From a virus (Duplodnaviria; Caudoviricetes), in IMG/VR virus record IMGVR_UViG_3300036845_000765, positions 1 through 50,001 of that record: DNA of 50,001 nt. The stretch is one strand, 5' to 3'. The notes beneath the pieces were generated by a model. That model was not told the DNA's origin, did no database searches, and saw only the letters and a list, made by a program, of their open reading frames with translations. Made by a program: the position numbers and the translations under genes. This document shows positions 16,737 through 34,080 of the stretch, piece by piece. Position 1 is the first letter of the stretch, and every line of letters starts with the position of its first letter.

Positions 16737-18459
16737 GCCCGAACCAGCGCTGTGGTTAGGATTACCTGACCCATGGTGGTGTATTCCGGATTGTGGTTCT
16801 CGGCTATGAGTGTCTTTATCTCATTCCCGGCCGCGGTGGCGAAGATGTAGCCCCAGCGTTGCCGGGGAATGTCTTGGGATTGGAGCCAGTAGTGCAGGGC
16901 AGTGATGATTTCGTCGGTGTCGTCGTTTTGGGTCATGTCAAAACCTCCTGTTGATTTTCACGATCGGTTTGTTCAACAAAGCAGTCACATCCAACGCTGG
17001 GCCTTCGCTGGGAGCCTTCTTGGTTCGACCACCGGACATTCGCTTGGCCCGCTGTTGGCGTTGGTAGGCGATCACCGCATCGATGTACTTGGGCTGGACG
17101 ATACCGGAGCCAAATGCGATTTCCTCGTCGATGCGGGCCATGAGTTCGTCGATGGTGGAGGGTTCGTCGGAAGGGGGCTCAGGCTCATGGTTGGTATCAC
17201 TGTTGGTATCACTGTTGGTATCGGGTTCGTTAGTCATTCTACTTCCCTCATAGCATATATCTTCCTTTGCTCCTCGGTTAGCTCGTCGACATTGCTTCTT
17301 TCCACGGACACGCAGGGACCTTCACCTTCCTCGAAGCCAGAACAGTCAATGGCAAAGTGCATTCTTAGGTCTTCCCCATAGAATTGATCGAAGTCTCCGG
17401 CTGGATGGAGTTTCTTCGCGCAGAACAAGGTTGTCCCTTCGGTTGTGTAGTCGGAATAACCAAAATCCGCGTGGATGGCAAATTTACAGTTCATGCAGTT
17501 GGGTTCGTTAGTCATTGACAGCCCTCGGGTAGATGGTGAAGTGGCCACTGGTGCGATCCCAGCCTACTTGATGCAGGGTTTTGTGTTCGATGTAGCTGCC
17601 AAGCATGTGCATGAAATGGTTGACGTCTTCGGGCTCACCTTCGAAGATCACCTTCACCGGCTTGGGCTGGCGGCCGAATGGTTCGTTGGTGCTCATTCCG
17701 GTACCTCCCGACGAAGAGCGTCGTCAATACGTGACCAGAGCAATGCTACCAAACCGCCCAGACCGATTACGACTGATCTTGGGGTCTCAATCGGTAAGGC
17801 GATGTCCAAGAAGGCCTGCATTGCACCCGCCGTGAGCACAGATAAAATCCATTTCATTCCGGTACCTCCGTTGTCTCGTGAATAATAAACACCGTTCCTG
17901 GTGGCATGGGTTGCATGATCATCATATGGTCGAACCCGCCGAACTCTTCCCTGGCGAGGTAGAGATCGGCAACGAACTTTCGCCGGTCGTCATCGTTGAC
18001 GGTGATCTTGAGCCCGATTTCCTCCCGGTCCGCGGCTTGCCAGAGGGCTAGGTAGCTGGTGGATGGGGGTTTGGTGGCCATTAGTCACGTTCCGTTTTGG
18101 TTAGGTTCTCAATCATCAACCTCGGAGCCGGACCGGCCAACTGCGGAGTGTCATCGATCTCGCTCAGGAGTTCGATCTCCCCAACCGCCAATGCCAACCG
18201 CTCCGCATAGACCCAGTAGTTGCCTTCATCATCTTCCTTGATCCGCAGACACATGTGGTCGTATTCACTGCTCCCGTGCATTTTGTGACCCTTCTCATAC
18301 ACGGTTTTGTTGAACTCGCGATGGAGCTTTCGCGCGTAGTTGCATCGATGGCGGAACTCGAAGGCTTTTTCGTAGGTGCCCATCGGGATCCGGCCACCTT
18401 TGGGGTCGTCGGATACTCGTTCGAAGAAGTCAATGCAGTCCGGGTAGGACTGTAGGGAG

Positions 18460-18789
18460 TTAGACATTGCCATGGAAGGTGCTTTCAGTTGCTGGGGACT
18501 CAGGGATTGTTGTTGGTTTTGTAGCTATGGCGTACATGACAAGACGGGCTTTGCCGTTGGAGTAGTTGTGTTTGATTAGAGTATAGCGGGTGGGGACTAG
18601 GGCGGTTACCAACCGGTTGACGTTGCTTAGGGTAGCGGACTTCGCGTAGACGGTGTATCCGCTACCGTAGATTGCGCTGGTTATGTCGGAAGGTCCACAG
18701 CCGGGGTGGGTGAGGATGTATTCGAACACCCGTTGGAGGGTTGGGGTGAGCTGGAGGATGTGGTGGCCGCACTGGGGGCAGGTGGTCAT
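18460..18789 (-). CDS. Zinc-ribbon plus winged-HTH protein, candidate transcription regulator
   Basis: CPQCG N-terminus then LTPTLQRVFEYILTHPG...SDITSAIYG. Confidence 0.55.
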   Translation of the reverse strand: MTTCPQCGHHILQLTPTLQRVFEYILTHPGCGPSDITSAIYGSGYTVYAKSATLSNVNRLVTALVPTRYTLIKHNYSNGKARLVMYAIATKPTTIPESPATESTFHGNV

Positions 18790-20748
18790 GGTTAGTTCAT
18801 CCTTCCCTGGGCTAGGGCAGTAATGATCCGCTCATTCATCTTGTAGTTCTCGGAAATGGTCAGCCAGCCCATCGCCAGACGAGTGTTGCGATCCCCACCC
18901 TCGGCTTGGAGTAGGTGGGCCATCATGGCTGCGTCTTCTTGGAGTTCGCGGAGTCGGTCGAGCATTTTGAGATAAGTGATCCCGATGGTGGGGAGACCTG
19001 CGGTGGTTTCGTAGTGGAAGGGCATAGGGCAGCTTCCTGTGGTTGGTATAATGAGGACAGACTAGCTTGGTCAGAGTAGGTGGCGATGATTTCTGGGATG
19101 AGCAAAGCTTCGATCCGCGCTGACTCCGCTTTCATTCGAACTTCGGTGATGGCCCAGGCACGGTTGACTGCGGAGCGGAGTTGGTCGGCAGAGCCAGAGG
19201 TTTGCATTTGGTAGATGAGTTGGTCGAGTTCGCGGAGGGAGCGGACTAGCTTGGTGATGTTGTCTTCTCGAGCTTTGGCTATGCTATTATGCTCTGAGTT
19301 GCTTAATGCCCACTGTTCACTCAACTTACGATTCAGTATGTGCAGATAAGCGTTGTCTTCCTCGAGCTTAGCTATCCTCGCCTTCGCCTTTCGGCCGAAC
19401 CAGTCGATCATCGGTCATCTCCGTGTAGAACCACAACCTCAAACCAACGTCCTTGGGCAAACATACAAACCAGCCCAGGGAAGTTGCCATACTTCCCTTC
19501 GTTGCGAAGTATCAACGCTCCGTTCTCGATCTTTGCGTAGTCGGCGATGACGGTGCGGGTGCCTTTGACAAGGATGACTTTGAATTTCATCAGAACCTCC
19601 GTTGGATGGTTATCTTCTGGGTCAGGGTGGATAGGTCGAGTTTGGGTCGGGAGATGTCAATACTCCACTCTACTGAACTCGGCTCCAGCTTCTCGGCCAT
19701 GGCGTGCATGGCGTCTTCGATGGCGCTGGCGAGGGTTGGGGCGTCGGCGCAGGATTTGAGGAGGTGGCTGTCGGAGTCGGGATCAGCGGCGGGACAGACG
19801 AGGGAACACCGCCAGTGGTCTGGGGCGAATTGGAACAGCCAGGAGATTTGCCAACCGGTTTCGGAGAGTTCGGTTAGCAGGTCGTCCACGCTGGTCATTG
19901 GAATAACCTTCCCATGGTTGCTAGGCACAAACCAAAGAAAGCACCGCGCTGGTGGATTGTTAGACGGATGACGTCTTCCAGGGTTGCTCGTGCAAGGAAC
20001 TCCTCGATTGTGGCTGGGCCAGCTTGGTCCCCGAAGTATTTTTTGAAGAGTCTCCAAATACCGATGATTTCTAGGATGAATATGGCTAGGCCGGCTTTGG
20101 TCATTTCCCAACTCCGATCCGCTTCAACGTGCTCGTCGCGATATCCATATCCGCCTGGGTCACCCCTGCGGCCATGAGTTTCTGGCTGGTTGCGGGGCGG
20201 GAGTTGTAGATCGGGCCAGAGTGTTCCACGGACCGGTGGGCGCCGAGGATGGCTAGGCATTTGGAGAGCCCGCCTTCGGAGATGGGGAAGCGGAGGATGC
20301 ACGGGGAATGGATGCTGGGGACCTCAGCATACACGTTGTTGTCATCCATCCAACAGCGGATGGCGTTGGGTGGGGCGAAGGATTGGAGGGTGGTGGTCAT
20401 AGAAAGCCTCCGAGCTCAGCAAGTTTGTCCTGCATTTCGTTGTACAGCGCATCCACCCGTTTGTATTCGGCATATTCCTCGTCTGTGATTTCTACAACTG
20501 AGGTGCCCATCATGAAGCCTGTGGTGTGCTCAAGTATGCAATAGTCTGGGTAGCGTTCGTCTTTGCAGATCTCGACTTTCATCCTTGCTTTCCTTTCCAG
20601 ATTGCCATGTGCTTCCCAGCATCCCGCACGTTTTCGTAGATTTGGAGCATGCGGTCGGCCATGGCGATTTCGGCTGGGGTGGCTAGGTCGGGGTTGATGT
20701 TGGCTTTGAGTAGCACGGTGGAGATATCGTCGGTGGGTTGTGGAACGC

Positions 20749-21183
20749 TCAAAACCGCCTCCATGGTTTGGGTTTCGCGGGGAGTGGTTGGTGGTTGGTA
20801 TCAGGCCTATGGTTGGTATCACTGCTACTGGACAGACGAGCCTCTGGTTCACCAACGGCCTCTGCGATGGCGTTGTGGAGAGCTATTGGGTCGTCTAGGG
20901 ACATCACGGTAAAGCCTAGGCCTGGGTCCTCCCCAACCATATCCCGATTATCCACCCAACCACCGCGGTCATGGTCCCAATGCCAGCCAGTGTTGACTGC
21001 TCCACGATCGATGAACCTGGGGAGCATCTCGCGATGGCGACAGGTTGAGCGCGAACCAGCGGGGCAGTCACATTCGGTGGTGGTGCAGAGGTAGGTGGTG
21101 ATGGGTTCGTTGTCGTCCCATTTGGTGATGCGGAAGTTGCCGCCGTCACTAGTGACTGATTTGCAGGAATAGAGGATGGTCAT
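20749..21183 (-). CDS. SWIM zinc-finger protein
   Basis: CDCPAGSRSTCRH (CxC...CxH). Confidence 0.7.
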   Translation of the reverse strand: MTILYSCKSVTSDGGNFRITKWDDNEPITTYLCTTTECDCPAGSRSTCRHREMLPRFIDRGAVNTGWHWDHDRGGWVDNRDMVGEDPGLGFTVMSLDDPIALHNAIAEAVGEPEARLSSSSDTNHRPDTNHQPLPAKPKPWRRF

Positions 21184-22404
21184 ACGAATAAGCCTTCCCG
21201 ATCTTTCTTGTATACGTACACATCTTCACAGGTCTCACTATCGATTATTTCTATACCTCCACAATACTCGATATCGAACTTGTCCGCTTCTCTGAAGGCT
21301 TCATCACAAGAATCATACGACCCTTTGTAATCAGACCATCCACCCCCTGGATAGTATGCTTCGTAAGCGAATACGATGTATCGCTTTAGTTTGATTGTAT
21401 TGGTCATGGCTTAGGGAGCCCTTTCGGGTTGTGGCAGGTAATGCACGCGATGTGCTCATGCGCAGGTGCCCAAGGTGCCCTGAGCCATCCTATGTCTAGG
21501 CAAGACCAACATGGCTCGGGCTGCTCAGGCTTGGCCGTAGTCTGATACCAGCTCCGATCAATAAACTCTCGCTGGTTGCTGGCTGGGGTGCAGTCTGGGT
21601 CGAAGCCGAGATCGATCATGTCTCGTCCTCCCAAGGCATCTTTGGCATGGAGGGTTTGATACGGTTGGCACGTCGTGTGGTCTCCGCTCGGACACGGACC
21701 AATGCAATCGGGGTGTCGGTTAGGGATCTGAGCTTTGGGTTAATACCTACTCGTGTGGGTTGTGGGTTGTGGGTCGCTGCACGGCTATAAGCAGCCTTCT
21801 GTCTACGCCATCTGTCGATCAGATCAGTCACCATAAGCCCATCCTTCCTTGCGTTCGTCGTCGATGTCGCGTTGGATTGCAGAGCGGGTGTCACGTTGAG
21901 GTTCTAGGCAGTATTGGTCCCACTGGGCTTGGGTCATTGGGAATTGGTAACCGTAGTGTTGAAGGAACCATTCCGAGTATATGGTATAGGTGTTCACCGA
22001 TTGCTCCGTTTTTGCTTGCGTAGTTCGCTGTTGGCGTTGGCTGGGGAATATCCAAGCCGGTCCAGGCATTGGAGGTAGAACCCTTCGCTGATCAGGCCAT
22101 GGCGAAGCCAAGCATCACAGGTTGGTTTGGCGTTGGAGGGATCTAGCAGATCGATTGACATTGGGGATCACTCCGAGCCTGGGGCACGTTTGCGATACAA
22201 GTCGATATCGTGCAATCGCCAATCGGTATCCAAGTCTTGTTCGTATTCCTTGTGCCCGCACTTGGGACAGACTAGGCCGGAGACTAGTCGAACCTGGACT
22301 TGGCAGCGCGGGCATTTCACCAATGGTGCTGGGTATGGGCGTTTCATTCTTGGGACCCCAAAACGAAAATGGACGGACAGCGTGATTTCTCACATTGTCC
22401 GTCC

Positions 22405-22433
22405 ATTATATCACATTATCGCGTCTTTGTCAA
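22405..22433 (-). promoter_or_regulatory. Consensus sigma70 promoter TTGACA-N17-TATAAT
   Basis: Perfect consensus on the minus strand in an intergenic gap. Confidence 0.92.
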
Positions 22434-22462
22434 GCCTTATTTTCCCTGGTCAGGGCTGGTGA

Positions 22463-23386
22463 TTAGGAATACCAGCCTTCGAGGGAACCGCCACCGGCGA
22501 ACCATTCATCTCGGTTGATGGTTGGGTAGTCGAGGGCGGAGTAGGATAGACCGGCGTAGGGCTTAGGCTGCCCTTGTTCGATGCCAGCCGTGGCAGATGG
22601 CGCAGAACCAGGGGGCTCCCCAACGAAAGGGGGTGGGGATGCCTGTTCGTGGTTGGTATCACTGTTGGTATCACTGCTGCTTGGCACGGATCCGATCGGC
22701 GCAGAGTCCTGTGAGCCAACAGATTGGGATTGGACAGTTGGCAATGGGGAGCCAGTTTGCGGTTCGACAATAGGGTCCACCGGTTCCCTATCCTCCCGAA
22801 CAGACACCAAGGGTTCGACAGATGGGGACGACGAGACAGGCTCCGAGGCGACAGGCTGGGAGAGGGGAGGGCTCTGAGGGTCGAGATAGGTAAACGCGGC
22901 GGGGTCTGGGGGGACCGTCGAAGGCTCGCTTGACGGCTTCTGCCAAGTCCCCCCAACGTCCGGATAGGTCGTAGGGAGAGGGGCACTCTCACCCTCGATT
23001 GGGCCAGACACGGCCTGGGTTGGCTGACCAGCGGCCAACGACTGGGGGTCCATACTGGTACCAGCCTGTGGCTCCCCCAACGTTGTGGGCTCTGCAGGCT
23101 TCACCGGCTCCAACGTCGCCAGAGCAGCCTTGATATGCCCAATCGCGTCATTCGCCACCAGTTCGCGAAAGGATGCTTGGTCCCTCTCCTCCCGAAGCGA
23201 GACCACTTCCCCAGCCAACTCGCTGATCTTGGCTTGGAGACTGTCAATAATCGACTGGCGATCATCAATTGTATCCTTCAGCCGACCAACATTGGCTTCA
23301 TGGTCGGCAATGGTCCGCAGATATTCCGGTTCGGCCTGCTGGGCGCGATAGGCTTCGGCAAGCTGGGCAATGAAATCTTGTGACAT
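22463..23386 (-). CDS. Coiled-coil protein with long Pro/Ser-rich disordered region
   Basis: 307-aa ORF with GGAG RBS. Confidence 0.75.
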   Translation of the reverse strand: MSQDFIAQLAEAYRAQQAEPEYLRTIADHEANVGRLKDTIDDRQSIIDSLQAKISELAGEVVSLREERDQASFRELVANDAIGHIKAALATLEPVKPAEPTTLGEPQAGTSMDPQSLAAGQPTQAVSGPIEGESAPLPTTYPDVGGTWQKPSSEPSTVPPDPAAFTYLDPQSPPLSQPVASEPVSSSPSVEPLVSVREDREPVDPIVEPQTGSPLPTVQSQSVGSQDSAPIGSVPSSSDTNSDTNHEQASPPPFVGEPPGSAPSATAGIEQGQPKPYAGLSYSALDYPTINRDEWFAGGGSLEGWYS

Positions 23387-23902
23387 TCGGGTCTACTCCT
23401 GGGTTAAGTGGACTTTGCCTTTCGGGTCTTGGCGTTTTCCACTTCTTGGGGATGGGGTGCGCGGTTACTTGGAGAACTCCTCGGTAGCCTGGGCTATGAT
23501 CTCGTTGATCAAGAGTTGTAGTACAAACACGCTGTCGGGAGGTGTCAGTACTGGGAACTCAGTGACCAGCACCTCCGCAATCCGGTCAGCACAACGCTTG
23601 ACTTCTTTTGGATGATCGTTCATTGGTTCGCTCCTGTTTGAAAGAGAAAAGCTGGGGAGATCCTGAGGATGTGTAGTGGATCGGCTGTGTGCTAGGGTTG
23701 GTATCACTGCTCCCCGACAGACTAGCTTCTTCGCACCGTTCCCTCATTGCTCTCCCCAGTTGGCACTGCTGGCGCCGGGTTCAGTTCAGGTCATTCCCCC
23801 AGTGATACGCGGTTCGGATAGGCGTTCCGTTTCTCACTGGGGGTAGGGGGAAGGGGAGGCATGGGCCTAGGGTTGGTATCACACCTATGCCTCCCCGACA
23901 GA

Positions 23903-24622
23903 CTAGTGCGCAGTATGCCCGTGGCTCACCGCTTCCGTCTTCGGCTTGGCCCTGGAAGCCACCTTGCCAGACTGCTTGGCAGAGAGAGGAGCACCCTCCC
24001 CGTCAGCCTTGGCTTTGCGGCCTCCCTTCGGCTTGGACTTGACATCCGCACCACTTTCCTCTTTGGCCTTGAACAAGTCCTTGAGGTTCAGCGGAATGCT
24101 GGTCTTGGCATCGGCAGCGCGCTCGTCAAGATTGGCTTGCGCCTGCTTGAGCAACCGCGGATTGCCGGCAAGGACTTCCTTGGCATACGCTGTGATCTCA
24201 GAGGCTTTGTAGGCGTTTTGCTTATGGCCGATGGACCGGATGTGGTCCTTGACCATTTCCTTGGCGAGACGCATCGCCTCGGTCTGCAACGCCCCGGTGA
24301 CTTTGTCGGCGCCGCTGGCTTTCTTGCCTTTCAGAGACCCGGCCTTGAGATCGGCAAGGTTCTTCTTGGCTTGGGTAACCACTGCGGCTTCGATCTTCAC
24401 CTTCTCTTCCGGTGAGGCTTTGGTATGGCCGGTGATTTTGGACATCCCAACCGTGTTGATGATTGCTTCCAGGCCTTTCTGGAAGATATACGCACAGGCT
24501 TCGTCGGACAGGGAGGTTGAGTCAACCTCGATCGTCCCTGCTTTGAACTTCAGCTCGATAGTGTAAGTGGTTTTCTGAACCACCTCCGGGGAGCTGTCTT
24601 CGCTAACCGTCACGTCTGACAT
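23903..24622 (-). CDS. Lys/Ala-rich early protein, possibly DNA-binding
   Basis: Long ORF with a basic low-complexity C-terminal tail. Confidence 0.7.
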   Translation of the reverse strand: MSDVTVSEDSSPEVVQKTTYTIELKFKAGTIEVDSTSLSDEACAYIFQKGLEAIINTVGMSKITGHTKASPEEKVKIEAAVVTQAKKNLADLKAGSLKGKKASGADKVTGALQTEAMRLAKEMVKDHIRSIGHKQNAYKASEITAYAKEVLAGNPRLLKQAQANLDERAADAKTSIPLNLKDLFKAKEESGADVKSKPKGGRKAKADGEGAPLSAKQSGKVASRAKPKTEAVSHGHTAH

Positions 24623-24723
24623 TCGATGCATTCCTTTGTTGGACGTCTTTGGGTTTGAGATGGCGCTATCGGGAAGCATTGGCTAGGCCACACCGCTTGG
24701 CCCGATCTTTGGTCTTCTCACTG

Positions 24724-24767: not shown

Positions 24768-24780
24768 GTGATTGGGTTGG

Positions 24781-25049: not shown

Positions 25050-25539
25050 GAATGATGGTTGGTTACTCTGGATCGACCACCACTGTGAAGACGAATGACG
25101 TTGCGCCTTCGTGCTTGTGAATTGCAAAGCTGATTGCCTCAAGCAATTCCTTGCCTGAGCGATCTTTGCTGTCGTGTTCGTCAATTTCCCTGTCGGGATA
25201 GTTGACTGTCAAATCAAGACCATATTTTGTCATCTTATCGCTCCGTTTGGTTGGTATCGTGGGGGACCTATGGTTGGTATCGTGGGGACAGACTAGCTCT
25301 CAGTTTTGGTCTTGGGTAGCACGCGCTTCACGTTCGCATAGGGGTTGAAGTTCTCCTCGAAGCGTTTCTCGTCAGGAATCACCTGACCTGTCCTGCCTAC
25401 TGTCTTGTGCACCACTATGTTGTCGTCTTCTTGCCTGACCACGACATAGCTTTCGCAAGCCCAATTAAACGACTCACCAACGTCAAAGTCTAAAGCTTGT
25501 GGCATAGTCTCATTCTCCTCTCAGGTTCACCGTCCGACC

Positions 25540-25583
25540 ATTCTGCGCCGTTCCGAGGCGGTTGTCAAGTCACGATTTCGTGA
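25540..25583 (-). promoter_or_regulatory. sigma70 promoter TTGACA-N17-CAGAAT with upstream palindrome TCACGAAATCGTGA
   Basis: Read directly from sequence. Confidence 0.75.
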
Positions 25584-26367
25584 GGCGCTCCAGCTTCCTC
25601 GCCAGCCTTGTCTGTTGTCTTTCACTGGAATATGGATAAACCCTCCGTGGCTTGAACCATCGCCTGGGGATGGCTGACTGGGCAGCACGGAGTTTTTGCT
25701 CTAGGATGGTTGGGAGGGGTTTCATTGGCTCAGCCCTCCACATGATAACGGCTAAGCACGCCTTGGGCTTCATCATAGGGAATGGCAGGGGAGATGTTCT
25801 CCCAAGGATCTCTGGTCTTGGACTTCCCTACCGCCCGCTCCTGCACTCGCCAGAGCCCATTAGGCACACTGACGATCCGATACCCTTCGTTCTTCTTCGC
25901 ATACACTGGGGATCTATTCATGGCTCATCGCTCCTAGGTTTCACCGATACAGACAATCAATAGCCTGACCTACTGCTTGTCTCTGCCCCTTAGGCAATTC
26001 CCCTAACAACACAACCAGCCTTTCACCGTGGTAGGTCACCCGGCAAATCTTAACGCTATCCTCAAACACATCCCAGAGATTACCCACTGGGCAGTGCAGG
26101 ACTTCAACAGGTTTGGCTGTCAACATTTGGCTATTCCCTTGTTTCACAGCTTCTGCACACCCATTGTTGTACCACAGTTATCACAGTGATACCAATCAAA
26201 GCTCTTGTTGATCTCATTGAGATAAGCATGTGGATGGACAGGCTTGGAGCAATGGGGGCATTCCCCGCTCAGGATCTTGCTGCGCCTGATCTCTCGATCT
26301 TCCAGCTCTTTGGTCTGCCGATAGTTCATACCCATTCTCCTCTCAGGCCTAATCGCCCAATCCGTCC

Positions 26368-26411
26368 ATCCTACACCGCCCCGCCGCCGGCGTCAAATCA
26401 CATTTTCGTGA
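26368..26411 (-). promoter_or_regulatory. sigma70 promoter TTGACG-N17-TAGGAT with upstream near-palindrome TCACGAAAATGTGA
   Basis: Read directly from sequence. Confidence 0.75.
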
Positions 26412-26594
26412 TGCGGAATGGGATTGGGCCTATGGTTGGTGGTTGGTATCACTGCGACAGACTACCAATACTTGATCACAAAGTGCAAGATCCCGAGAGT
26501 CACAGCCCCGGCCGCCATAGCCCAGATAATCAACATCACTCCCATCAGCACAGCCTTGCCCATTCCCGCTCTCCATTGTTTCACCAACGCCTCC

Positions 26595-26623
26595 ATCATA
26601 TCACATCCCGCCGCCATTGTCAA
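26595..26623 (-). promoter_or_regulatory. sigma70 promoter TTGACA-N17-TATGAT
   Basis: Near-consensus; outermost leftward promoter. Confidence 0.82.
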
Positions 26624-26716
26624 GCACAATTTCATCCCATTTCCAGGCCTGACCAGACCAACCAAGGATGGAGATTGCCCTTGGCCCGCTATGTGCCCCC
26701 CACTTGGTTCAGGTAG

Positions 26717-26919
26717 GCCCAAGGTGATACCAACATGATACCAAGGTCAGTGAGCCCTCCAGCCTACCCCTTATCCGGGCCTAGGCCTTAGAGTCATCAA
26801 AAAAACCAAAAAAAAAATCGACCCTACGGTATGTACCCCCCCCCCCTCCGGGTACGGGGTAGCTGGGAGATCCCACGAACCTTGGTATGATCTTGGGCTG
26901 ATCTTGGTACCACCTGGGC
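26717..26919. other. Non-coding divergence centre with inverted TACCAA repeats flanking A7/A10 and C11 tracts (origin or terminus candidate)
   Basis: Lies between divergent promoters; homopolymers at 26799-26817 and 26836-26846. Confidence 0.4.
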
Positions 26920-27076
26920 GGGAAGGGTGGAGATGGGTGGTTGGTGGATTGGTGAGGCAGCTATCCAGCTCATGGGGATCGGTGCAGGTGGAGCTTGGGG
27001 CAATTGGGGAAGGGGCGAGGAATGCCCGATTGTGCGTTGCAATGACAAACTAGTCCCATATTGCTGCACCGCATCA

Positions 27077-27120
27077 TCACGAAATCGTGACTGGACACAG
27101 CCCGACCGATGTGAGATGCT
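27077..27120 (+). promoter_or_regulatory. Rightward promoter TGGACA-N17-GATGCT with palindrome TCACGAAATCGTGA
   Basis: Same palindrome and same 1-nt offset from the -35 as at 25570. Confidence 0.6.
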
Positions 27121-27165
27121 CCCTCCCGTCGGCAACCCGCCGTCGCTGTCCAAAGGACCAAGCAC

Positions 27166-27426
27166 ATGACCCAAGCCTCCCAGCTTTCCCCGACCGAACT
27201 CGCCCTCGTCAAACAGATCGCTGAACTGAAAGCCCAGCTTGAGCAAGCCAACAAGCCCAAGGCGATCACGCTCAAGGTCTCCGAGAAAGGCGCGCTGTCC
27301 ATCTACGGCCTTGGCCGCTTCCCGATCACGCTGTACCTCTCCCAGATCGAGCGCCTGATCGGCCATGTTGACCAGATCAAGGCCTTCATCGCCACCAACC
27401 GCTCCCTGTTCGCCACCAAGGCCTAG
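27166..27426 (+). CDS. Small conserved-looking phage protein (coiled coil plus VSEKGALSIYGLGRFPITLY), possibly nucleic-acid binding
   Basis: AAGGA RBS, own promoter, strongly C-biased codons. Confidence 0.75.
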   Translation: MTQASQLSPTELALVKQIAELKAQLEQANKPKAITLKVSEKGALSIYGLGRFPITLYLSQIERLIGHVDQIKAFIATNRSLFATKA

Positions 27427-27735
27427 CCTCCCTGGTGCACGCTGCACTGCGGTAGCTGCACCGCACCACCACCCCAGGCCTCTCGCCCATCCCGGGCGGG
27501 GGGCCAAAATTTGGCGTCTGCGCGGGCCCCAGTGAAGCTCTCCGCTAAAAATATAATTTTCCGGCGCGTGGATGGGCCGCAGTGTTGCTCCCAGACAAAA
27601 ATATATTTTTCTCATCTCCCCATATAAAATATTTTTTCAAAGTGGTTCTCACCTAGGTCCCTCGTAGCGTCTGGTAGGGGAGATAACTTTGGTTATGGAA
27701 GTTATGAGATTGATAAGAAAAGTTATTGGGGAGGG

Positions 27736-27764
27736 TTGATTTGTGGAGCGAAGTGTGGTATAAT
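27736..27764 (+). promoter_or_regulatory. sigma70-like promoter TTGATT-N17-TATAAT for the packaging/structural operon
   Basis: 17-nt spacing, TG-extended -10, upstream of the terS-like gene. Confidence 0.75.
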
Positions 27765-27802
27765 GCGCAGGTAGAGTTGGAATTTGGCGAAGGTTTGAAG
27801 TT

Positions 27803-28480
27803 GTGAACTACGCGCTCCACAGAGGTAGACTGGCTACTGCGCCGAGGATACTAGAGGTTCGCCCGTTGGTTCGGGAGGACCTCGCTGTCCTGCGGCAGAG
27901 GCGTGCGCCGTCGGGAAGGATCAAAGCGTTCCGGAATCATCACCATCGTCTGGCGAAGCTGGTCGCGGCTGGGTTGAAGCGGGCGCAGATTTGTGAAGTC
28001 ATGGGGATCAGCTACTCCCGGCTGAGCCAGTATGAGTCCGATCCGGCTTTCCAGAACTTGGTTGCCCAGTATCGTCCCGAGATCGACGCGGAAGATCAGA
28101 AAGAGATTGACGAGTATCGATCTCTCAAACTCGACAACATGATCCGGGCCGAGCGCCAGATCGGCGAACAGCTCGAGCGAGCGGAGGAAGAGGACGAACC
28201 AATCGCTCTCCGCTCGCTCCTTGCCATTTCCTCCGACGGCGCGGATCGCCTGGGCTATTCCAAGCATTCTCGCCAAACCACTGAAATCCTAGACTTCGCC
28301 AAGATCATGGAACAGAAAATGTCCCTGCTTGGCAAAGGCGTTGTGATTGATGCTGACCGACAGCCCACGGTTGAATCAATCACCGGCGATGGAGGCTCAC
28401 CCACCGGCTCCTCTCCTCCATCGCCGCCCAAACTCACTGGTGAGACGACGCGCCAGCGGGTCCGGGGAGGGGAGACATGA
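27803..28480 (+). CDS. Putative terminase small subunit (HTH)
   Basis: HTH-like AQICEVMGISYSRLSQYESDPAF; immediately upstream of terL. Confidence 0.6.
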   Translation: MNYALHRGRLATAPRILEVRPLVREDLAVLRQRRAPSGRIKAFRNHHHRLAKLVAAGLKRAQICEVMGISYSRLSQYESDPAFQNLVAQYRPEIDAEDQKEIDEYRSLKLDNMIRAERQIGEQLERAEEEDEPIALRSLLAISSDGADRLGYSKHSRQTTEILDFAKIMEQKMSLLGKGVVIDADRQPTVESITGDGGSPTGSSPPSPPKLTGETTRQRVRGGET

Positions 28481-28595
28481 TCGCGCGATGTGGTTATTCG
28501 GGTCATCACATTTCGCTCGCCGATCTGTTTCCCCTTTTCGGTTTAGTCTGTCCTCATTATACCAAGCTTGATACCAACCATAGGTCCCAATCATA

Positions 28596-30113
28596 ATGGA
28601 CCCCCGCCTCGCAGAATGGCTAGTCTCCGTCCGCGACGATCCTGAAGCCTTCGTCATGGGCGCCTTCCCCTGGGGCGAGAAGGGATCTCAGCTCGAAGGC
28701 TACACCGGCCCGATGCCTTGGGCCGTCAACCAAATGCGCCGAATCAAAGCCGGTCTGATCAACGTCAACGACGCGATCATGGAAGCAGTCGCCTCCGGTC
28801 ACGGCATCGCCAAGTCCACAACCGTCGCCCATCTCATCCTCTGGGCATTCATGACCTACCCAGACACCCGAGGAGTCATCACCGCCAATACCGAAACCCA
28901 ACTCAAAACCAAAACCTGGGCCGAACTCGGCAAATGGTTCAACCTCTGCTGGTTCGCGAGGGAATACTTCTCCCTCAACGCCACATCCCTCCTCTCCAAA
29001 GACCCAACCCGAGAACGAACCTGGCGGATCGATATGATCCCCTGGTCCAAAACCAATCCCCAAGCATTCGCTGGCCTCCACAACAAAGGCAAGCGAATGC
29101 TACTAGTCTTCGACGAAGCCTCGGAAATCGAAGACATCATCTGGGAAACCGCAGAAGGTGCCTTCTCCGACCGTGACACCCAGCTCATCTGGCTAGTCTA
29201 CGGCAACCCAACCCGCAACTTCGGCCGGTTCCGAGAATGCTTCGACGGTGGCAAGCACAATTCCTTCTGGCACTGCACCCAGATCGATTCCCGCGATGTC
29301 CCAATCACCAACCAAAAGCGCATCGCCAAACTAATCGCCACCTACGGTGAAGACACCGATTACACCCGCATCCGCATCCTGGGACAGTTCCCGCGCCTGG
29401 GCATGATGGAGTTCTTCTCTGCAATGGACATCGACGCAGCCATGTCCACCGAGCGCGAGGTTTATGTAGATGCCCTCACCCCGTTGGCTCTCGGTGTCGA
29501 CGTTGCCCGGTACGGCAAGAACAACTCGGTCATCTATCCGCGTAAAGGCCGAGACGCCCGTTCCCTCCCAGCCAAGGTCTTCTCTGGCATCAACACCGTC
29601 GCCCTATCCAACCAAGTCTATTCCGCCTGGGAACTCTGGCATCCCGACGGAATCTTCATCGACGGCGGCGGTGTCGGCGGCGGTGTCGTCGATTCCTGCC
29701 GGGCCAAGTCCCTCTACGTCACCGAAGTCCAGTTCGGCGCCAAAGATTCCATAACCGGCCTGATCTTCAACAACACCGGTGAAAAATACGCCAACATGCG
29801 CGCAGCCATGTACGGCGCCGCCCGAGCTTGGCTCCCCAACGGCATGCTCCCGGCCAACCCAGAACTCCGAACTGCGATGTTGGCGATCACCTACACCTTC
29901 AACAAGCAGGATGAAATCATCCTCACTCCGAAAGAAGACATCCTCGCCGACCATCCCGATATCGACCTCGACACCCTCGACGCCTTCTGCCTAACCTTCG
30001 GCGGTCCCTTGGTCCCGAACGCCAACGCCGGTGGCGAACGCCCCGACTCCACCAAACCCCTCCACCAAACAGAGTACAACCCATTCGACCCAGCCTTCAT
30101 GGATGCAGCATGA
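28596..30113 (+). CDS. terL: Terminase large subunit
   Basis: VASGHGIAKS Walker A variant, LVFDEAS Walker B, GNPTR, LGVDVARYG nuclease motif, DAFCLTF. Confidence 0.95.
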   Translation: MDPRLAEWLVSVRDDPEAFVMGAFPWGEKGSQLEGYTGPMPWAVNQMRRIKAGLINVNDAIMEAVASGHGIAKSTTVAHLILWAFMTYPDTRGVITANTETQLKTKTWAELGKWFNLCWFAREYFSLNATSLLSKDPTRERTWRIDMIPWSKTNPQAFAGLHNKGKRMLLVFDEASEIEDIIWETAEGAFSDRDTQLIWLVYGNPTRNFGRFRECFDGGKHNSFWHCTQIDSRDVPITNQKRIAKLIATYGEDTDYTRIRILGQFPRLGMMEFFSAMDIDAAMSTEREVYVDALTPLALGVDVARYGKNNSVIYPRKGRDARSLPAKVFSGINTVALSNQVYSAWELWHPDGIFIDGGGVGGGVVDSCRAKSLYVTEVQFGAKDSITGLIFNNTGEKYANMRAAMYGAARAWLPNGMLPANPELRTAMLAITYTFNKQDEIILTPKEDILADHPDIDLDTLDAFCLTFGGPLVPNANAGGERPDSTKPLHQTEYNPFDPAFMDAA

Positions 30114-30301
30114 AAATCTCCCAACCCGACCAACCAACTCCGGCCTTACCCCAACTCCCCAAGGCCATCCCTCCCCCGCCAATCCCAACCAGCACCCCGG
30201 GAGCCAAGCCCCAGGCCAAGTCAATGAACCAATCCTACCTCAACGCCGGGGCAGCGCCAAGCAAGGATAACATCGGCACCAAACAACTGGTCGGCCAGTG
30301 A
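30110..30301 (+). CDS. Small Pro-rich virion-associated protein
   Basis: Coupled to terL; short pre-portal gene ending KQLVGQ. Confidence 0.6.
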   Translation: MKISQPDQPTPALPQLPKAIPPPPIPTSTPGAKPQAKSMNQSYLNAGAAPSKDNIGTKQLVGQ

Positions 30302-30426
30302 TGTTTGAAAACTGGGTCCCTCCCGAATTCTACTGGATGATTTTGTTAATTGTCATCCTCGGAGGCTCATGGATTGTATTTGGTCTGTGGCATCTGTTTG
30401 CCCACCTTTCAATTGGATGGCTGTGA
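30301..30426 (+). CDS. 41-aa Trp-rich membrane peptide (not in the ORF track)
   Basis: MFENWVPPEFYWMILLIVILGGSWIVFGLWHLFAHLSIGWL; TGATG overlaps at both ends; AT-rich. Confidence 0.7.
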   Translation: MFENWVPPEFYWMILLIVILGGSWIVFGLWHLFAHLSIGWL

Positions 30427-30821
30427 TGCCCCAAGCCCCATCCCTCCCTCCCGACCAAATGGCCTCGGCCCAGGCCAACGCAGGCATGAACCCGATTAAC
30501 TTCATTATAGCGGCTGCGGACCTTAACAACTCTGGGCAATCTCCTTGGGAACCAGGAACCAAAGAGTCCGATTCCGCATTCATGAAGAACATCAACCCGA
30601 AATCCTACGATAGCCTCCACCCATCCCCCAGCGTAGAAGACCGCCGCGACCAACCATACAAAACCCCCTCTCCCGAGGAAACATCGCGGAACGCTAAGTA
30701 CGCTCTCCAAGATCAAGAACAACGGGAAGCTGGGATCTACTCACCTGACCAAGACTCTTCCCTGGCTAAGCAACTCGGCGCTGCCCAACTCGACAAAGCC
30801 CTAGCCAAAAAGAAACGCTAA
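30426..30821 (+). CDS. Hypothetical protein, paralogous N-terminus with the next gene
   Basis: ANAGMNPINFIIAAADLNNSGQ. Confidence 0.7.
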   Translation: MPQAPSLPPDQMASAQANAGMNPINFIIAAADLNNSGQSPWEPGTKESDSAFMKNINPKSYDSLHPSPSVEDRRDQPYKTPSPEETSRNAKYALQDQEQREAGIYSPDQDSSLAKQLGAAQLDKALAKKKR

Positions 30822-31012
30822 TGCCAATGGCCCCAGCAGCACCCCCACTCGACCCATCCACAGACGCTAACGCTGGGCTAAATCCAGTCAACTTCCTAAT
30901 GGCCGCTGCCGACCTCCACAAATCCGGCCAACTGTCGGCTCCCGTCCCAACCGGCACCCCACTCCAAACCGGCAAGCGCGCATCCCGCAAGCCGATCAAG
31001 GTCATTAAGTGA
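30821..31012 (+). CDS. Hypothetical protein, paralogue of the previous gene
   Basis: ANAGLNPVNFLMAAADLHKSGQ. Confidence 0.7.
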   Translation: MPMAPAAPPLDPSTDANAGLNPVNFLMAAADLHKSGQLSAPVPTGTPLQTGKRASRKPIKVIK

Positions 31013-32766
31013 ACGCCCCAATCGCCAACCCGTTCTCAGGCATCTACTCGGAATATGTCACCGAGCAAGACATGCTCTTGCGGAAATTCCAACAAGGGCG
31101 TTTGCTTGGTCTGCGGAACAACCGATACTCGTGGTGGACCCACGCGAGGGAGTTGGCTGATTTCATCCTTCCCCGGAGATATAAATGGCTAATTACCCAA
31201 AATCAACAGAACCGTGGTTCTCCAATCAACCAGCACATATTGGATTCTACTGGCACTATCGCGGCCCGCAACCTGTCTGCCGGAATGATGTCGGGGATAT
31301 CTTCCCCTACTCGACCTTGGTTCAAACTCAAGATTGGACGTTTAGACTCCACGCAAACCAGCCCCACGAGCTTGTGGTTAGCTGAATGCGAACGCCTGAT
31401 GTACCTCGTCTTCGCCGAATCCAACTTCTACACCTCCATGGCGATCTTCTACTTCGACCTCGTCGTCTTCGGCACCGCAGTCCTCCTCATCTACGAAGAC
31501 TTCGACAACGTCCTCAACTGCATCAACCCATGCTTTGGCGAATACTACGTCGACATCGACGGGAAATACCGCCCAGTCATCTTCTATCGCGAGTTCACCT
31601 TCACCATCGCCCAAGTCGTCGCGGAGTTCGGTTACGAGAACTGCTCCCCAATGATCCGCCAGTTCTACGATCTCCAAGACGGCGCGAACCTAACCCGAGA
31701 GGTCATCATCGCCCATGCCATCGAACCGAACACGGATGCGAAGAAGTATGGCATCCCTACCCATTTCGAATATCGTGAGACTTATTGGGAATGGGGAGGT
31801 GCTACAAATCCTCAGGGGGGAACTACTGCGCGCGGCTTCCTCCGAAAGCGTGGGTTCACTGAACGTGCAGCTATCATTGGGCGATGGGATTTGGTCGCCA
31901 ACGATCCGTATGGCCGATCTCCCGGCATGGATGCTCTCCCGGACATCAAACAACTCCAACAGCAAAGCCGACGCAAAGCCCAAGGCATCGACAAAGGCAT
32001 CAACCCTCCTCTAGTCGCCGACGCCCAACTCAAAAACCAACCCGCATCCCTCCTCCCCGGCGGCATCACCTTCCTCCAAGGAATGATGTCCACCGGCCAA
32101 GACGGAATGAAACCAGTCTACGGTTCCTGGCGGCCCGATATCACCGCGATCTCCGAAGATCTCCAAGAAGTCCGCCAGCGAATCAAAGACACCTTCTTCA
32201 ATTCCCTATTCCAAGTCGCATCCCAATTCGAAACCCGATCCAACATCACCGCTGTCGAATGGGACATGCGGAAATCCGAATCCTTGATGATGCTGACCCC
32301 AGTCATCGAGCGTCTCCAATCCGAAGTCCTAGCCCCAGTGATCGACCGGGTCTGGGGAATCATGGATCGCGCTGGCATCCTTCCTCCACCCCCACCCGAA
32401 GCCGCAGGGAAGTTCATCAATGTCGAATACACTTCTATGCTCATGCTCAGTCAGCGAGCCGCCACCGCTGGCTCGATTGAACGTGTACTTCAAATGGCCG
32501 GTCAGCTCGCTGGCATTGACCCATCCGTCGTTGACAATATCGACTTTGATATGGCCATCGACCTCTACGCCAACCTCCTCAACCTCGACCCCCGAATCAT
32601 CCGCTCCCCAGCTTCCCTAGCCCAGATCCGCCAACAGCGCCAAGCCCAGCAGCAACAAGCCGCCCAGTCCCAGCAAATCGAAGCCCTCTCCAAAGCCGGC
32701 GCCAACGCTTCCCAAATCGACGTCGGCGGTGGCCAGAACCTCGTACAGAAGATGCTCCAAGGATGA
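31009..32766 (+). CDS. Portal (head-tail connector) protein, T7 gp8/BPP-1 type
   Basis: DSTG...SPTRPWF, DLVVFGTA, YGRSPG, Gln-rich C-terminal barrel. Confidence 0.95.
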   Translation: MNAPIANPFSGIYSEYVTEQDMLLRKFQQGRLLGLRNNRYSWWTHARELADFILPRRYKWLITQNQQNRGSPINQHILDSTGTIAARNLSAGMMSGISSPTRPWFKLKIGRLDSTQTSPTSLWLAECERLMYLVFAESNFYTSMAIFYFDLVVFGTAVLLIYEDFDNVLNCINPCFGEYYVDIDGKYRPVIFYREFTFTIAQVVAEFGYENCSPMIRQFYDLQDGANLTREVIIAHAIEPNTDAKKYGIPTHFEYRETYWEWGGATNPQGGTTARGFLRKRGFTERAAIIGRWDLVANDPYGRSPGMDALPDIKQLQQQSRRKAQGIDKGINPPLVADAQLKNQPASLLPGGITFLQGMMSTGQDGMKPVYGSWRPDITAISEDLQEVRQRIKDTFFNSLFQVASQFETRSNITAVEWDMRKSESLMMLTPVIERLQSEVLAPVIDRVWGIMDRAGILPPPPPEAAGKFINVEYTSMLMLSQRAATAGSIERVLQMAGQLAGIDPSVVDNIDFDMAIDLYANLLNLDPRIIRSPASLAQIRQQRQAQQQQAAQSQQIEALSKAGANASQIDVGGGQNLVQKMLQG

Positions 32767-32972
32767 CCAAAGCCCCCATCGCCCAGCACTCAATGATCTT
32801 CGAAGTCACCGGCAAGGATGAACGTGGTCGGTCCACAACCAAAGACATCACCATGTACGCACCACCATTCCTTTCCCTGGCCCAACTCGAAGCCCACCTC
32901 GCCGAAGCCATCCGTCTCAACCCGGATCTGAAATTCGTCCACAAATCCTGGGCAGGGCTACCCAATGACTAG
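32763..32972 (+). CDS. Small hypothetical protein
   Basis: ATGA overlap with the portal stop. Confidence 0.6.
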   Translation: MTKAPIAQHSMIFEVTGKDERGRSTTKDITMYAPPFLSLAQLEAHLAEAIRLNPDLKFVHKSWAGLPND

Positions 32973-32999
32973 TCTGTTATTCCGGCAGTGATACCAACC

Positions 33000-33446
33000 A
33001 TGACCCGCGATGGTACCGACCGCAAATCCCTAGCCCGCTTAGCTAAGCAAGCCAAGCAGTCCGAAGCGAACCGGATTGCCTACACCCGAACCATCCTATC
33101 CGACCGCTTCGGCCGCGAATGGATGTGGAACCTCCTAACCCGCTGCCATTGTTTCCACACCTCTTTCGTCGCCGGCCACCCAGATATCACCGCGTTCCAA
33201 CTAGGCGAACAGTCCATCGGTCTCCAACTCCTCGCCGATGTCACCCTCGCCTCCCCAGCCGACTACACTCTCATGTCCAACGAAGCTCTAACCCGGGAAC
33301 TAGCCAATGCCAGCCGAGAATCCAACCCCGACCAACAATCCGCAGACCCAGCCGGGAATCCGGGATCCCTCGGGAACGATCCTGGACAGCCCATCGACGA
33401 CGGCTCCGGATTCCTCGACCCAGACGACCCAGCCAGCTACCACTGA
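33000..33446 (+). CDS. Bbp19-like head-associated protein
   Basis: GREWMWNLL..C..F.TSF...TAFQLGEQSIGL pattern; between portal and scaffold. Confidence 0.65.
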   Translation: MTRDGTDRKSLARLAKQAKQSEANRIAYTRTILSDRFGREWMWNLLTRCHCFHTSFVAGHPDITAFQLGEQSIGLQLLADVTLASPADYTLMSNEALTRELANASRESNPDQQSADPAGNPGSLGNDPGQPIDDGSGFLDPDDPASYH

Positions 33447-34080
33447 GCAGCCTGGGACATCGTTCCTTACCGGGAAGAAGGTCGAAGGTGACGGTAGCAG
33501 TGATACCAACAGTGATACCAAGCCCGACCCTGCCAAACCCGACACTCCAGTCCTCCCCGCTGGCGCGCCCGAGAAATACACCGACTTCAAACTCCCCGAT
33601 GGCGTCTCCATGGACCCCAAGGCCAAAACCGATTTCGAAACCTTCGCGAAATCCACCGGCCTATCCCAAGACCAAGCCCAAGCCGCTGTGGACGTCTACA
33701 CCAAGCACGCCATCGCCGCGGCCAAAGCCCCTTACGACCTCTGGGCCAACACCCAAAAAGAATGGCAAACCGAAATCCTCTCCCGCTTCGGTGGCGAGTC
33801 CGGAGCCGACCGTATGCGCGCTGATGTCAACTCCGTCATCTCCCGAACCCTTCCCCCGTCCCTCCAGAAATCCTTCCGGGCCGCTCTGGACTTCACCGGC
33901 GCCGGCACCAACCCAGACATCCTCGAAGCCTTCTCCATCATGTTGAAGCCCCTCATGGAAGGCAAACCAGTCCTTGGCAACGGCCCAGTGACCCCGGCCG
34001 ACCCAGCCAAACCCGGCGCAGGCCAGCAAGTCGACCTAGCGGCGGCAATGTACCCCCATCTCGTGCCCAATCGGCGCTAA
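33307..34080 (+). CDS. Capsid scaffolding protein
   Basis: Pro/Thr-rich N-terminus, APEKY.F.LPDG, GLSQDQAQ, C-terminal AAMYP; precedes capsid gene. Confidence 0.85.
   Translation: MPAENPTPTNNPQTQPGIRDPSGTILDSPSTTAPDSSTQTTQPATTEQPGTSFLTGKKVEGDGSSDTNSDTKPDPAKPDTPVLPAGAPEKYTDFKLPDGVSMDPKAKTDFETFAKSTGLSQDQAQAAVDVYTKHAIAAAKAPYDLWANTQKEWQTEILSRFGGESGADRMRADVNSVISRTLPPSLQKSFRAALDFTGAGTNPDILEAFSIMLKPLMEGKPVLGNGPVTPADPAKPGAGQQVDLAAAMYPHLVPNRR

Follow-up and report, generated by a model that had tools for sequence, protein, structure and literature searches.

A private family of short, strand-polar repeat modules in a soil podovirus genome, possibly recognition sites of a phage-specific factor

What kind of element can lie in front of genes, supply their stop codons and also run in frame through unrelated proteins of the same phage? 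This question is raised by a short repeat in IMGVR_UViG_3300036845_000765, the genome of an uncultivated soil phage of the podovirus type, which we analysed as a whole (the entire record of 50,001 bases, a single contig with a CheckV completeness of 100%; here we refer to it as the window). An earlier note, based on the letters of the sequence alone, had described a core of about 20 copies at about 12 loci and read it in three ways, as an RNA-level site, as a polar DNA signal or as a self-propagating micro-element. We identified the repeat as a family of short, proliferated and polar modules, private to this phage lineage and added at a dozen permissive places.

The core box, TGATACCAAC, was present in 13 exact copies, compared with a mean of 0.09 in shuffled sequences, and none of 100 shuffles reached 13; Markov models of order 1–4, for which the training sequence was the sense strand, copies included, gave an expectation of 0.05–0.25 for this 10-mer. 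The core 8-mer, GATACCAA, occurred 21 times with 1.13 expected, and for k = 9–12 no other word of the genome was as strongly over-represented as the core. The pattern [TC][GT]ATACCAA[CG] was found 22 times in the window, and 20 of these copies form 12 loci within 17190–33522, in agreement with the counts of the earlier note. The remaining two were found at 12164, the sole pattern match below 17 kb, and in the capsid gene (34724), with none beyond 35 kb. The extended core, (A)GCAGTGATACCAAC(C), showed 16 matches at up to 3 mismatches where 1.57 were expected. The repeat family is real, and its statistical support is overwhelming.

Two further boxes accompany the core. Box A, TAGTCTGTC, had 7 exact copies against 0.13 expected, a number reached by none of 100 shuffles, and two more sites with one mismatch, at 20831 and 32970; the former, box-A-like (CGTCTGTC), is probably ordinary coding sequence. 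Box A preceded the core at 8 loci, at the variable spacing that had been proposed (4, 4, 4, 4, 9, 9, 10 and 15 nt), and the spacers between them (CTCA, CCCA, GCAG, GGGGAGCAG, CAGTAGCAG, ATTCCGGCAG, GGGGAGGCATAGGTG) differ in sequence. Box B, the core as (GC)AGTGATACCAAC, is present in 1–3 copies per locus, and the commonest composite, A-N4-B, spans 23 nt and was detected at four loci. Box C, CMTAGGYCC, is weakly enriched on its own (6 matches, 1.45 expected, 1 of 100 shuffles reaching 6) and follows only 4–6 of the 20 cores, once with a 7-nt insertion between, the fused form TGATACCAACC[AC]TAGG[CT]CC being found at four loci. Tandem cores are spaced by 11, 12, 12, 12, 12, 18 and 23 nt, and the distances from a core to the next start are 1, 16, 16, 17, 29, 73 and 106 nt. 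Copies are also mosaics of each other: 28544–28588 is composed of the 19043–19064 block and the 25263–25281 block. The stretch of 22 identical nt, in opposite orientation, that had been noticed between 19043–19064 and 28544–28565 was confirmed.

The genes of this phage point rightward to ~9.2 kb, leftward from ~26.6 down to 9.2 kb and rightward again from ~27.1 kb. With the arms defined by this gene direction, the exact core 10-mers were 13 sense and 0 antisense and the core 8-mers 20 sense and 1 antisense. The claimed strand bias was thus borne out for nearly all copies, while strict polarity was broken by one inverted copy at 26183–26197, with 14 of 15 positions identical. Together with a neighbouring half copy it forms a 13-bp palindrome (26179–26191), and, when paired by hand, ~17 nt of it match the complement of the box A–core module located 250 nt upstream on the same transcript. 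An mRNA-like strand is only a presumption for the pair at 26725/26736, which lies between divergent promoters in a large imperfect palindrome.

Eight of the 12 loci are non-coding and four are internal to genes. As had been proposed, the TAG of box A serves as the stop codon of the open reading frames (ORFs) ending at 23903, 25293, 26462 and 32972, and in-frame DTN(S/H) copies were confirmed in ORFs 16938–17237, 20749–21183, 22463–23386 and 33307–34080. In these coding copies the serine before GAT is encoded by AGT in 7 of 7 cases, although AGT makes up 7% of serine codons, and the aspartate by GAT in 9 of 9 against 42% usage. Such codon invariance indicates that the repeat is a nucleotide-level and not a peptide-level unit.

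Separately built Logan contigs of sequencing run X1 cover loci 1–3 and 5–9 at a depth of ~16–27 with 0 differences, so the copies are not artefacts of one assembly. This run, the sole public one with the region, is probably the source sample, and its contigs therefore represent a separate assembly rather than an independent sample. A minor co-occurring variant retains one of the scaffold core copies, the other being changed at 33508–9. The minor contig at 33486–33553 (depth 8, compared with ~39, in the same run) carries a 3-nt deletion and 7 substitutions, 2 of which fall in the first scaffold core copy, and it indicates a co-occurring strain.

The closest cultured relatives share only ~37–39% portal identity with this phage. 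IMG/VR holds many uncultivated relatives, from which a comparison set of 80 loci with 62–89% portal identity was built, and many early-arm proteins have homologues there, which permitted a site-by-site comparison, as the earlier note had suggested. At locus 1, the orthologue in relative G005 begins with MTDI-PEPPTD, compared with MTNEP-DTNSDTNSDTNH-EPEPPSD here; as it lacks the 12 codons, the three cores represent a 12-codon insertion. The G002 orthologue has one diverged SDTDDHN at the same place. At locus 3, the alignment with the orthologue from G003 (L012) covers the full 144 residues and has a single 17-residue gap, precisely where the module lies, after which the conserved terminal PKxWRRF* is kept, overlapping the ribosome site of the next gene; the module is therefore translated and not an accidental run-on. 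Six distinct orthologues of the 258-aa gene at locus 6 end in ...H-TAA with no module, and the same codon is the box A TAG in our phage.

Similarly, the spacer before the large terminase gene (locus 10) is of similar length and unrelated sequence in two relatives (L004 and L001), where it carries a GAAGG ribosome site. At locus 11, the small upstream gene of relatives runs up to or into the Bbp19-like gene, which starts with GTG/ATG, while here it is shortened by the box A TAG, with a 25-nt module in between; this module was absent in 10 rows (8 distinct records) among 78 matches. The linker at locus 12 varies in length and sequence across 43 aligned relatives, between conserved GxSFLT and GAPEKY, and the repeat was found in none of them. 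Empty orthologous sites were thus identified at loci 1, 3, 6, 10, 11 and 12, which are all 6 loci with orthologues, and indicate that the copies are lineage-specific insertions; this supports the propagating element among the three earlier readings. For locus 2, the sequence in front of the downstream gene is unrelated in its orthologues, and in ORF 22463–23386, which holds locus 4, homology to relatives is limited to residues 3–105 of 307. The landing places are an ancestral stop codon, N- and C-terminal tails, a disordered linker and non-coding leaders, and every copy inside a protein uses the single open frame that is hydrophilic. Target-site duplications were not seen.

The motif was above chance in none of nine related complete or partial genomes. 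Counts of GATACCAAC in G001–G005 were 1, 2, 3, 0 and 0, single matches in relatives being due to a conserved DTNH codon run in the capsid gene, and the top 10-mer had 13 copies in this genome (G000) compared with 5–8 in eight relatives. A 14-mer scan of viral contigs returned at least 118 matches, all single and at chance level. With a tandem 20-mer, 0 viral, 3 genome and 11 metagenome matches were obtained, and all 14 share no more than a repeat stretch of ~30 nt; the four that were examined (L216, L217, L223 and L224) were unrelated IPT/DTN coding repeats.

Other members of the group have private words of their own. In G006 the word GGCAATCTCAAG was detected, and CAATCTCAA occurs 11 times, mostly in tandem at small-gene junctions, adjoining the ATG and a GGA(A/G)G ribosome site, with two inverted copies within a small-terminase-like gene (the word is located at 3220–4170 and 5860–5900 of L039). 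The word shared by G010 and G008, TGACTGTGCTA, has 6 copies in G010 (420–51397), all on one strand, and that of G007, TAAGGCCAAG, has 8 copies on both strands. No comparable word was found in G001, G002, G003, G005 or G009. Private short repeats are therefore recurrent but not universal in this phage group, and the strongest set by far is that of the present genome.

Table 1. Repeat loci and related copies in the window
Feature	Position	Strand	Composition	Context
Locus 1	17190–17223	-	three tandem cores, period 12 nt, in frame	codons 6–17 (DTNSDTNSDTNH) of ORF 16938–17237
Locus 2	19042–19064	-	box A + 4 nt + variant core (TTATACCAAC)	16 nt upstream of ATG 19025
Locus 3	20794–20821	-	core-C-core	within in-frame insertion of ~16–17 codons (SSSDTNHRPDTNHQPL), C-terminal tail of ORF 20749–21183
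Lone box A	22266–22274	-	box A, in frame (LVC)	within ORFan 22115–22393
Locus 4	22652–22677	-	two tandem cores, period 12, in frame	homologue-free part of ORF 22463–23386
Locus 5	23697–23724	-	box A + 9 nt + core + CCTAGC	non-coding
Locus 6	23853–23905	-	box A, then hairpin with 10-bp stem, core + box C in loop	TAG of box A = stop of 258-aa gene
Locus 7	25250–25295	-	box A + 4 nt + core + C + core	TAG of box A = stop of 25293–25505; 16 nt upstream of ATG 25233
Inverted copy	26183–26197	+	antisense, 14/15 identical to tandem form	makes palindrome TATCACAGTGATA inside gene 26144–26335
Locus 8	26426–26464	-	box A + 4 nt + core + CACCAAC + box C	TAG of box A = stop of small hydrophobic ORF
Locus 9	26714–26745	+	TAGGCCC + two cores 11 nt apart	left arm of central imperfect palindrome
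Locus 10	28544–28587	+	box A + 4 nt + variant core + core + box C	ends 8 nt before large-terminase ATG 28596
Locus 11	32970–32998	+	TAGTCTGTT + 10 nt + core	TAG = stop of 32763–32972; adjoins ATG 33000 of Bbp19-like gene
Locus 12	33497–33522	+	two tandem cores in frame (SSDTNSDTK)	hypervariable linker of scaffold/protease-like gene 33307–34080
Capsid copy	34724–34736	+	core-like CGATACCAACCAC	inside major capsid gene; ancestral coding sequence (WG-x-DTNH)

The copy in the major capsid gene differs from the rest in its history. The capsid family conserves WG-x-DT-x-H, and among 40 rows 25 have DTN and 17 DTNH, mostly encoded as GAYACCAACCAC; the copy at 34724 is ancestral coding sequence and not an insertion. 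The chance that the motif would be identical over 12 nt to conserved capsid codons was roughly estimated at 0.003–0.02 for a match that was noticed post hoc. The core may thus have been seeded from the 12-nt capsid coding stretch (GATACCAACCAC), or the identity may be a coincidence, and it is a lead about origin only; the diverged SDTDDHN near the N-terminus of the G002 orthologue is another conceivable seed.

The earlier note had argued against a promoter, and this argument held: consensus sigma-70 promoters were identified elsewhere, at 22433–22405 (12/12), 26623–26595 (11/12) and 27736–27764, a separate palindromic operator exists, and searches for an RNA polymerase or sigma gene of the phage drew a blank, although the polymerase control could not have given a match either. 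The operator-like site, TCACGAAATCGTGA, occurs three times, at 25563–25583 (-), 26392–26413 (-) and 27075–27097 (+), each time adjoining a -35-like TTGAC(A/G)/CTGGACA box, and the two leftward cassettes share an identical 15-nt ribosome-site block, CCTGAGAGGAGAATG. The three sites resemble a classical control set of the repressor/Cro type and are distinct from the repeat; locus 8 lies directly upstream of one operator-promoter cassette. The site at 22405–22433 (-) is a perfect TTGACA-17-TATAAT with TG extension inside the early arm, which implies a second strong leftward transcription unit. As sigma-70 consensus promoters serve both arms elsewhere and the three cassettes have their own operator, the module was rejected as the main promoter; only 1 of 9 promoter-like sites overlaps a module, and this one is weak (28568–28597). 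It was likewise rejected as an intrinsic terminator, with 0 of 14 terminator-like sites overlapping one.

Between the leftward promoter 26623–26595 and the rightward operator-promoter cassette at ~27075–27120 lies the central imperfect palindrome, with two 69-nt arms (26710–26778 and 26848–26916) that are 72% complementary around a poly(A)/poly(C) tract. Its right arm has degenerate core copies on the other strand, and both sets point inward. Given its position between divergent promoters, this stretch is probably untranscribed. The stretch 26710–26916 may be an origin or a DNA-structural site of another kind, and relative G006 has a comparable succession of G-run, poly(A) and C-run (L039:4470–4600).

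The claim that the core at 23853–23896 sits in a hairpin loop was confirmed (fold z -2.6). The z-scores of the 12 loci were 0.54, 1.45, -0.15, -2.60, 2.28, 0.03, 0.64, 0.95, -0.03, 1.31, -1.23 and -1.64, that is, folding was clearly better than in shuffles at 1 of the 12 and z was -0.15 or higher at 9. An enclosing stem had p < 0.06 at 2 of the 12 loci, in a duplex output that was odd and is given little weight. A conserved RNA hairpin displaying the core was thus rejected as a general feature. Several other roles were tried and set aside. A rut-like C-rich bubble is not distinctive, the C-minus-G value of the modules over 60 nt falling at the 57th–90th percentile of the sense strand. The sense strand is C-rich and A-rich throughout both arms, with a right-arm GC skew as low as -0.29, and the CA-rich make-up of the motif is in line with this general composition. 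A three-frame stop signal was dismissed as the core TGA and the box C TAG are in the same frame (by hand), and recoding or read-through of TAG as conserved genes are open under table 11 and TAG is the stop in 6 of 31 genes tallied. A putative complementarity of the core to the 16S rRNA 3′ end (GUGAU + CCAACC, with one bulge) would need helix 45 to be opened and is a lead rather than evidence.

The 280-nt non-coding stretch after the 258-aa gene, 23625–23905 (-), has a fold z of -3.3 with 0 of 200 shuffles folding as well. In several relatives, its block AGCAATGAG(A/G)(A/G)AC recurs behind the orthologous gene, and the stretch could be a conserved non-coding RNA or leader. Near locus 1, two adjacent small genes share their first 15 nt, ATGACTAACGAACCC (MTNEP), at 17501–17515 (-) and 17223–17237 (-), which suggests duplication or recombination at gene starts. 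Profile searches assigned the portal to the T7 type (PF12236) and the capsid protein to the epsilon15 type (PF20911). A split family-A DNA polymerase, a uracil-DNA glycosylase (UDG)-exonuclease, a Sak4-like AAA_24 protein, a PD-(D/E)XK nuclease, a DUF3987 primase/helicase, a lysozyme and a 2094-aa LPD22 'polyvalent' protein are also encoded. The last one, at 360–6644 (+), has the LPD22 domain at its N-terminus, matches PHROG 9880 (unknown function), shows a weak match (E 0.0046) to ADP-ribosyl-hydrolase chains at residues 1303–1425, and is probably an injected polyvalent protein; no polymerase match was found for this virion-type protein among PDB sequences. No tRNA or Rfam families were found in the genome, and no integrase in it or in 4 complete relatives.

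Several explanations compete for these observations. The modules could be a function-less proliferating micro-repeat that spread by slippage, microhomology template switching or gene conversion, with tolerated copies whose near-identity reflects recency. Empty orthologous sites, tandem expansions with 12-nt units and internal CCAA repeats, mosaic relationships among copies, their presence in a hypervariable linker and in protein tails, the confinement to one genome and the recombination genes of the phage (Sak4-like AAA_24, PD-(D/E)XK nuclease) are all in its favour. Nevertheless, we consider it rather unlikely, though a serious rival, as all 8 of 8 non-coding or junction loci inside transcription units are sense for no obvious mutational reason (the antisense frames are stop-free), the boxes are sharply conserved while the intervening spacers are not, box A gives four genes their stop codon, one of them at the very position of the ancestral stop, and no transposase, reverse transcriptase or integrase was found in the genome. 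A related candidate, an element of the repetitive extragenic palindrome (REP) or miniature inverted-repeat transposable element (MITE) type, agrees with the modules in part only; presence/absence polymorphism at orthologous sites was indeed seen (6 loci empty in relatives), but the modules have no internal dyad and no Y1 transposase (e.g. RAYT), reverse transcriptase or integrase was found. A polar signal for replication or DNA processing is less probable still: the origin would be the palindrome at 26710–26916, and the boxes would be sites of an initiator or primase-helicase (iteron-like, or like P4 ori/crr) or Chi-like sites on the leading strand of both replichores. Orientation does flip at the central palindrome, which has inward-pointing copies on both arms, the GC skew changes sign at ~24–26 kb, a DUF3987 primase/helicase is encoded and G006 has a similar poly(A)/poly(C) region. 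On the other hand, the direction of transcription flips at the same place, so orientation cannot tell the two readings apart; copies at gene junctions that make use of a stop codon have no replication reason, relatives with the same replication genes lack the motif, and there are no copies past 35 kb, nor below 17 kb. Iterons, moreover, are expected to be clustered at one origin with regular spacing, whereas here 12 loci are dispersed over 16 kb with spacings of 11–23 nt and only locus 9 is in the origin-like palindrome.

It is very unlikely that the module acts as a promoter recognised by a polymerase, a sigma factor or an activator specific to the phage. Private polar motifs of ~20 nt at gene junctions are typical of T7-type promoters, the fused core–box C form recurs at four loci, other family members have private polar motifs of their own, and the core-plus-C 19-mer ending in ATAGG bears what we take to be a loose resemblance to T7-type promoters. 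Yet the genome gave no match to Sigma70_r2 and none to the T7-type RNA polymerase family PF00940, for which the control genomes could not have given one either, both arms are served by sigma-70 consensus promoters, most copies lack box C, are in tandem or lie inside genes far from starts, and no conserved -10-like element was found at a fixed distance. Selection for SDTN peptide repeats in several proteins could be imagined, since the DTN(S/H) repeats of four proteins share one frame and the capsid has a conserved DTNH; this is hardly tenable and effectively refuted, given the 8 non-coding loci, the invariant codons, including the rare AGT, and the location of copies in tails and linkers of low conservation. 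An artefact of assembly or of adapters would fit a motif seen in one record from one sample only, and its probability is negligible in view of the loci reproduced in the separately built contigs of the run, the preserved reading frames, the functional stop codons supplied and the minor variant strain that also has the motif.

The explanation that we favour, although tentatively and with less than even confidence, is that the modules are multi-copy, orientation-dependent putative binding sites of a phage-specific factor, similar to stoperators or start-associated sequences (SAS), which spread by short templated insertion. Sharp, near-invariant boxes with variable spacers and a near-uniform orientation point to recognition sites for one sequence-specific factor. 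Such a factor would most likely be encoded among the phage's own ORFan early genes and would act in an orientation-dependent manner on the transcription units of both arms. It may be bound to DNA as a roadblock or operator, like the mycobacteriophage stoperators, an option that we slightly prefer, or the module may be read in the transcript, where it would affect processing, stability or translation in the manner of SAS. The slight lean towards DNA comes, weakly, from the copies in the probably untranscribed promoter spacer and from the palindrome formed by the inverted copy: the locus 9 copies beside the divergent promoters and the palindrome at 26179–26191 fit a DNA-binding protein, while the irregular tandem spacing and the in-frame copies are equally compatible with a transcript-level signal. 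As the module replaces the Shine-Dalgarno-bearing junctions of the large terminase and Bbp19-like genes, it must permit their expression. New copies would arise by tandem slippage together with short-patch templated insertion or gene conversion between existing copies, and would persist only where the insertion is tolerated.

Several points weigh against the binding-site explanation. Pfam and PHROGs scans of ~45 ORFs gave no convincing binder and Atlas look-ups were blank; among the early ORFs no repressor-like or helix-turn-helix match was above threshold, although a remote homologue is possible, and a homologue search for the binder matched only the query itself. Of the proteins that had been put forward as binders, those encoded at 27166–27426 and 23903–24679 are conserved in relatives without the motif and are thus poor candidates for specificity. 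Better candidates are the products of 17234–17515, 18923–19411, 19590–19898, 21180–21407, 22115–22393, 25293–25505 and 25941–26147, for which relatives have no homologues. The lack of an integrase makes an L5-type immunity-repressor role unlikely. Non-genic tandem spacing is irregular (11, 12, 18 and 23 nt), which disfavours a fixed cooperative DNA complex, core-to-start distances of 1–106 nt are unlike those of SAS, no general RNA structure was found around the core, and one copy is simply conserved capsid coding sequence. The motif is in one genome only, and recent spread alone, rather than purifying selection, could account for the near-identity of the copies. A bolder and quite improbable version combines spread with function: an enzyme-less copy-and-paste 'nano-element' of 12–50 nt, strand-polar, spread across its genome by a lytic phage and landing on stops or in frame, would wire genes into the private regulon of one ORFan-encoded DNA- or RNA-binding protein, its core maybe seeded by the capsid gene. 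Given the other private polar words (G006, G007 and G008/G010), this phage family might repeatedly invent pairs of site and factor.

Phage-specific gene control leaves few traces that can be seen; dispersed, oriented short repeats are among these and have, to our knowledge, been worked out only for the mycobacteriophage stoperators. The present set is a clean example outside the actinobacteriophages, with high copy identity, empty sites in relatives and separately recognisable promoters and operators. With the empty sites, gain events can be dated, and the landing places (stop codons, tails, linkers) disclose the rules of insertion. Should a factor bind the boxes, the phage would offer a small system in which to follow the establishment of a new regulon throughout a genome; should none bind, it would be a record of micro-insertion without an enzyme of its own, by which phage proteins are altered in frame.

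Among the known systems, the nut sites of lambda are bipartite RNA signals (boxA-spacer-boxB) after the first gene of each divergent early operon, two per genome. They differ from the twelve loci here in that boxB is a hairpin, and in that translated copies would be inactive; no N-like protein was identified in this phage. A contiguous sequence of ~20 nt in fixed register, as in T7-type promoters, was not found either, box C following only the minority of cores given above. The L5-type stoperators of Cluster A phages are, in the portion of PMC9283540 that deals with them, asymmetric sites, more than 20 in number, in short intergenic spaces and the promoter region of both arms, with an orientation tied to transcription and activity in that one orientation only. 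Our modules are alike in being asymmetric many-copy sites, in part located in short spaces between genes and at a promoter region, whose orientation follows transcription in both arms. A stoperator site measures about 13 bp, and a protein bound to it blocks transcription elongation depending on its orientation. The L5 type has a cognate monomeric two-domain immunity repressor, encoded by a temperate phage, whereas searches of this genome turned up neither an integrase nor a repressor that could be recognised; the sites here are often in tandem or in coding sequence and are bipartite with variable spacing, and the promoters have their own palindromic operator, in a podovirus with a host using the sigma-70 consensus.

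The SAS and extended SAS (ESAS) of Cluster K phages, as the relevant sections of PMC3203893 describe them, are bipartite with a variable spacer, have one orientation with a rare inverted copy, include stop codons inside the repeat and lie mainly in the non-structural arm; their function is given there as unknown and thought to be mediated by RNA or protein. On that description the likeness extends to privacy, the mainly non-structural arm, the bipartite form, the single orientation with a rare inverted copy and the upstream stop inside the repeat. According to the same sections, SAS lie 3–7 bp from the start with a Shine-Dalgarno core and are conserved across the whole cluster, whereas the modules here have no AGGAG, are 1–106 nt from the start or gene-internal, and belong to one genome; SAS-type conservation at orthologous genes was not seen among the relatives, where the sites are empty. 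The motif of G006 (GGAAGGnAATCTCAA-ATG) is more SAS-like than that of this genome.

Cluster O phages, which have no integrase, carry more than 30 dispersed copies of 17-bp repeats of unknown function, ~1/3 of them coding (PMC4351075); these are dyad-symmetric with no meaningful orientation, unlike the asymmetric and polar motif here. The early-promoter stem-loop (PeSL) cassettes of T4-type phages are, in the part of PMC4122927 that treats them, repeated short regulatory modules in a hyperplastic ORFan region, thought to mediate insertions and deletions by recombination. As described there, a PeSL consists of a terminator stem-loop and an early promoter, while the modules here are neither, save for the weak promoter-like overlap at 28568 and a strong hairpin at 1 of 12 loci. 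By analogy, the stoperators would be the closest worked-out model and SAS/ESAS the closest descriptive match. What is new are the empty orthologous sites and the landing rules, while the mechanism is an inference. The repeat is best filed under the known kind of dispersed, oriented short repeats of phage genomes, rather than as a demonstrable stoperator, SAS, PeSL or T7-promoter member.

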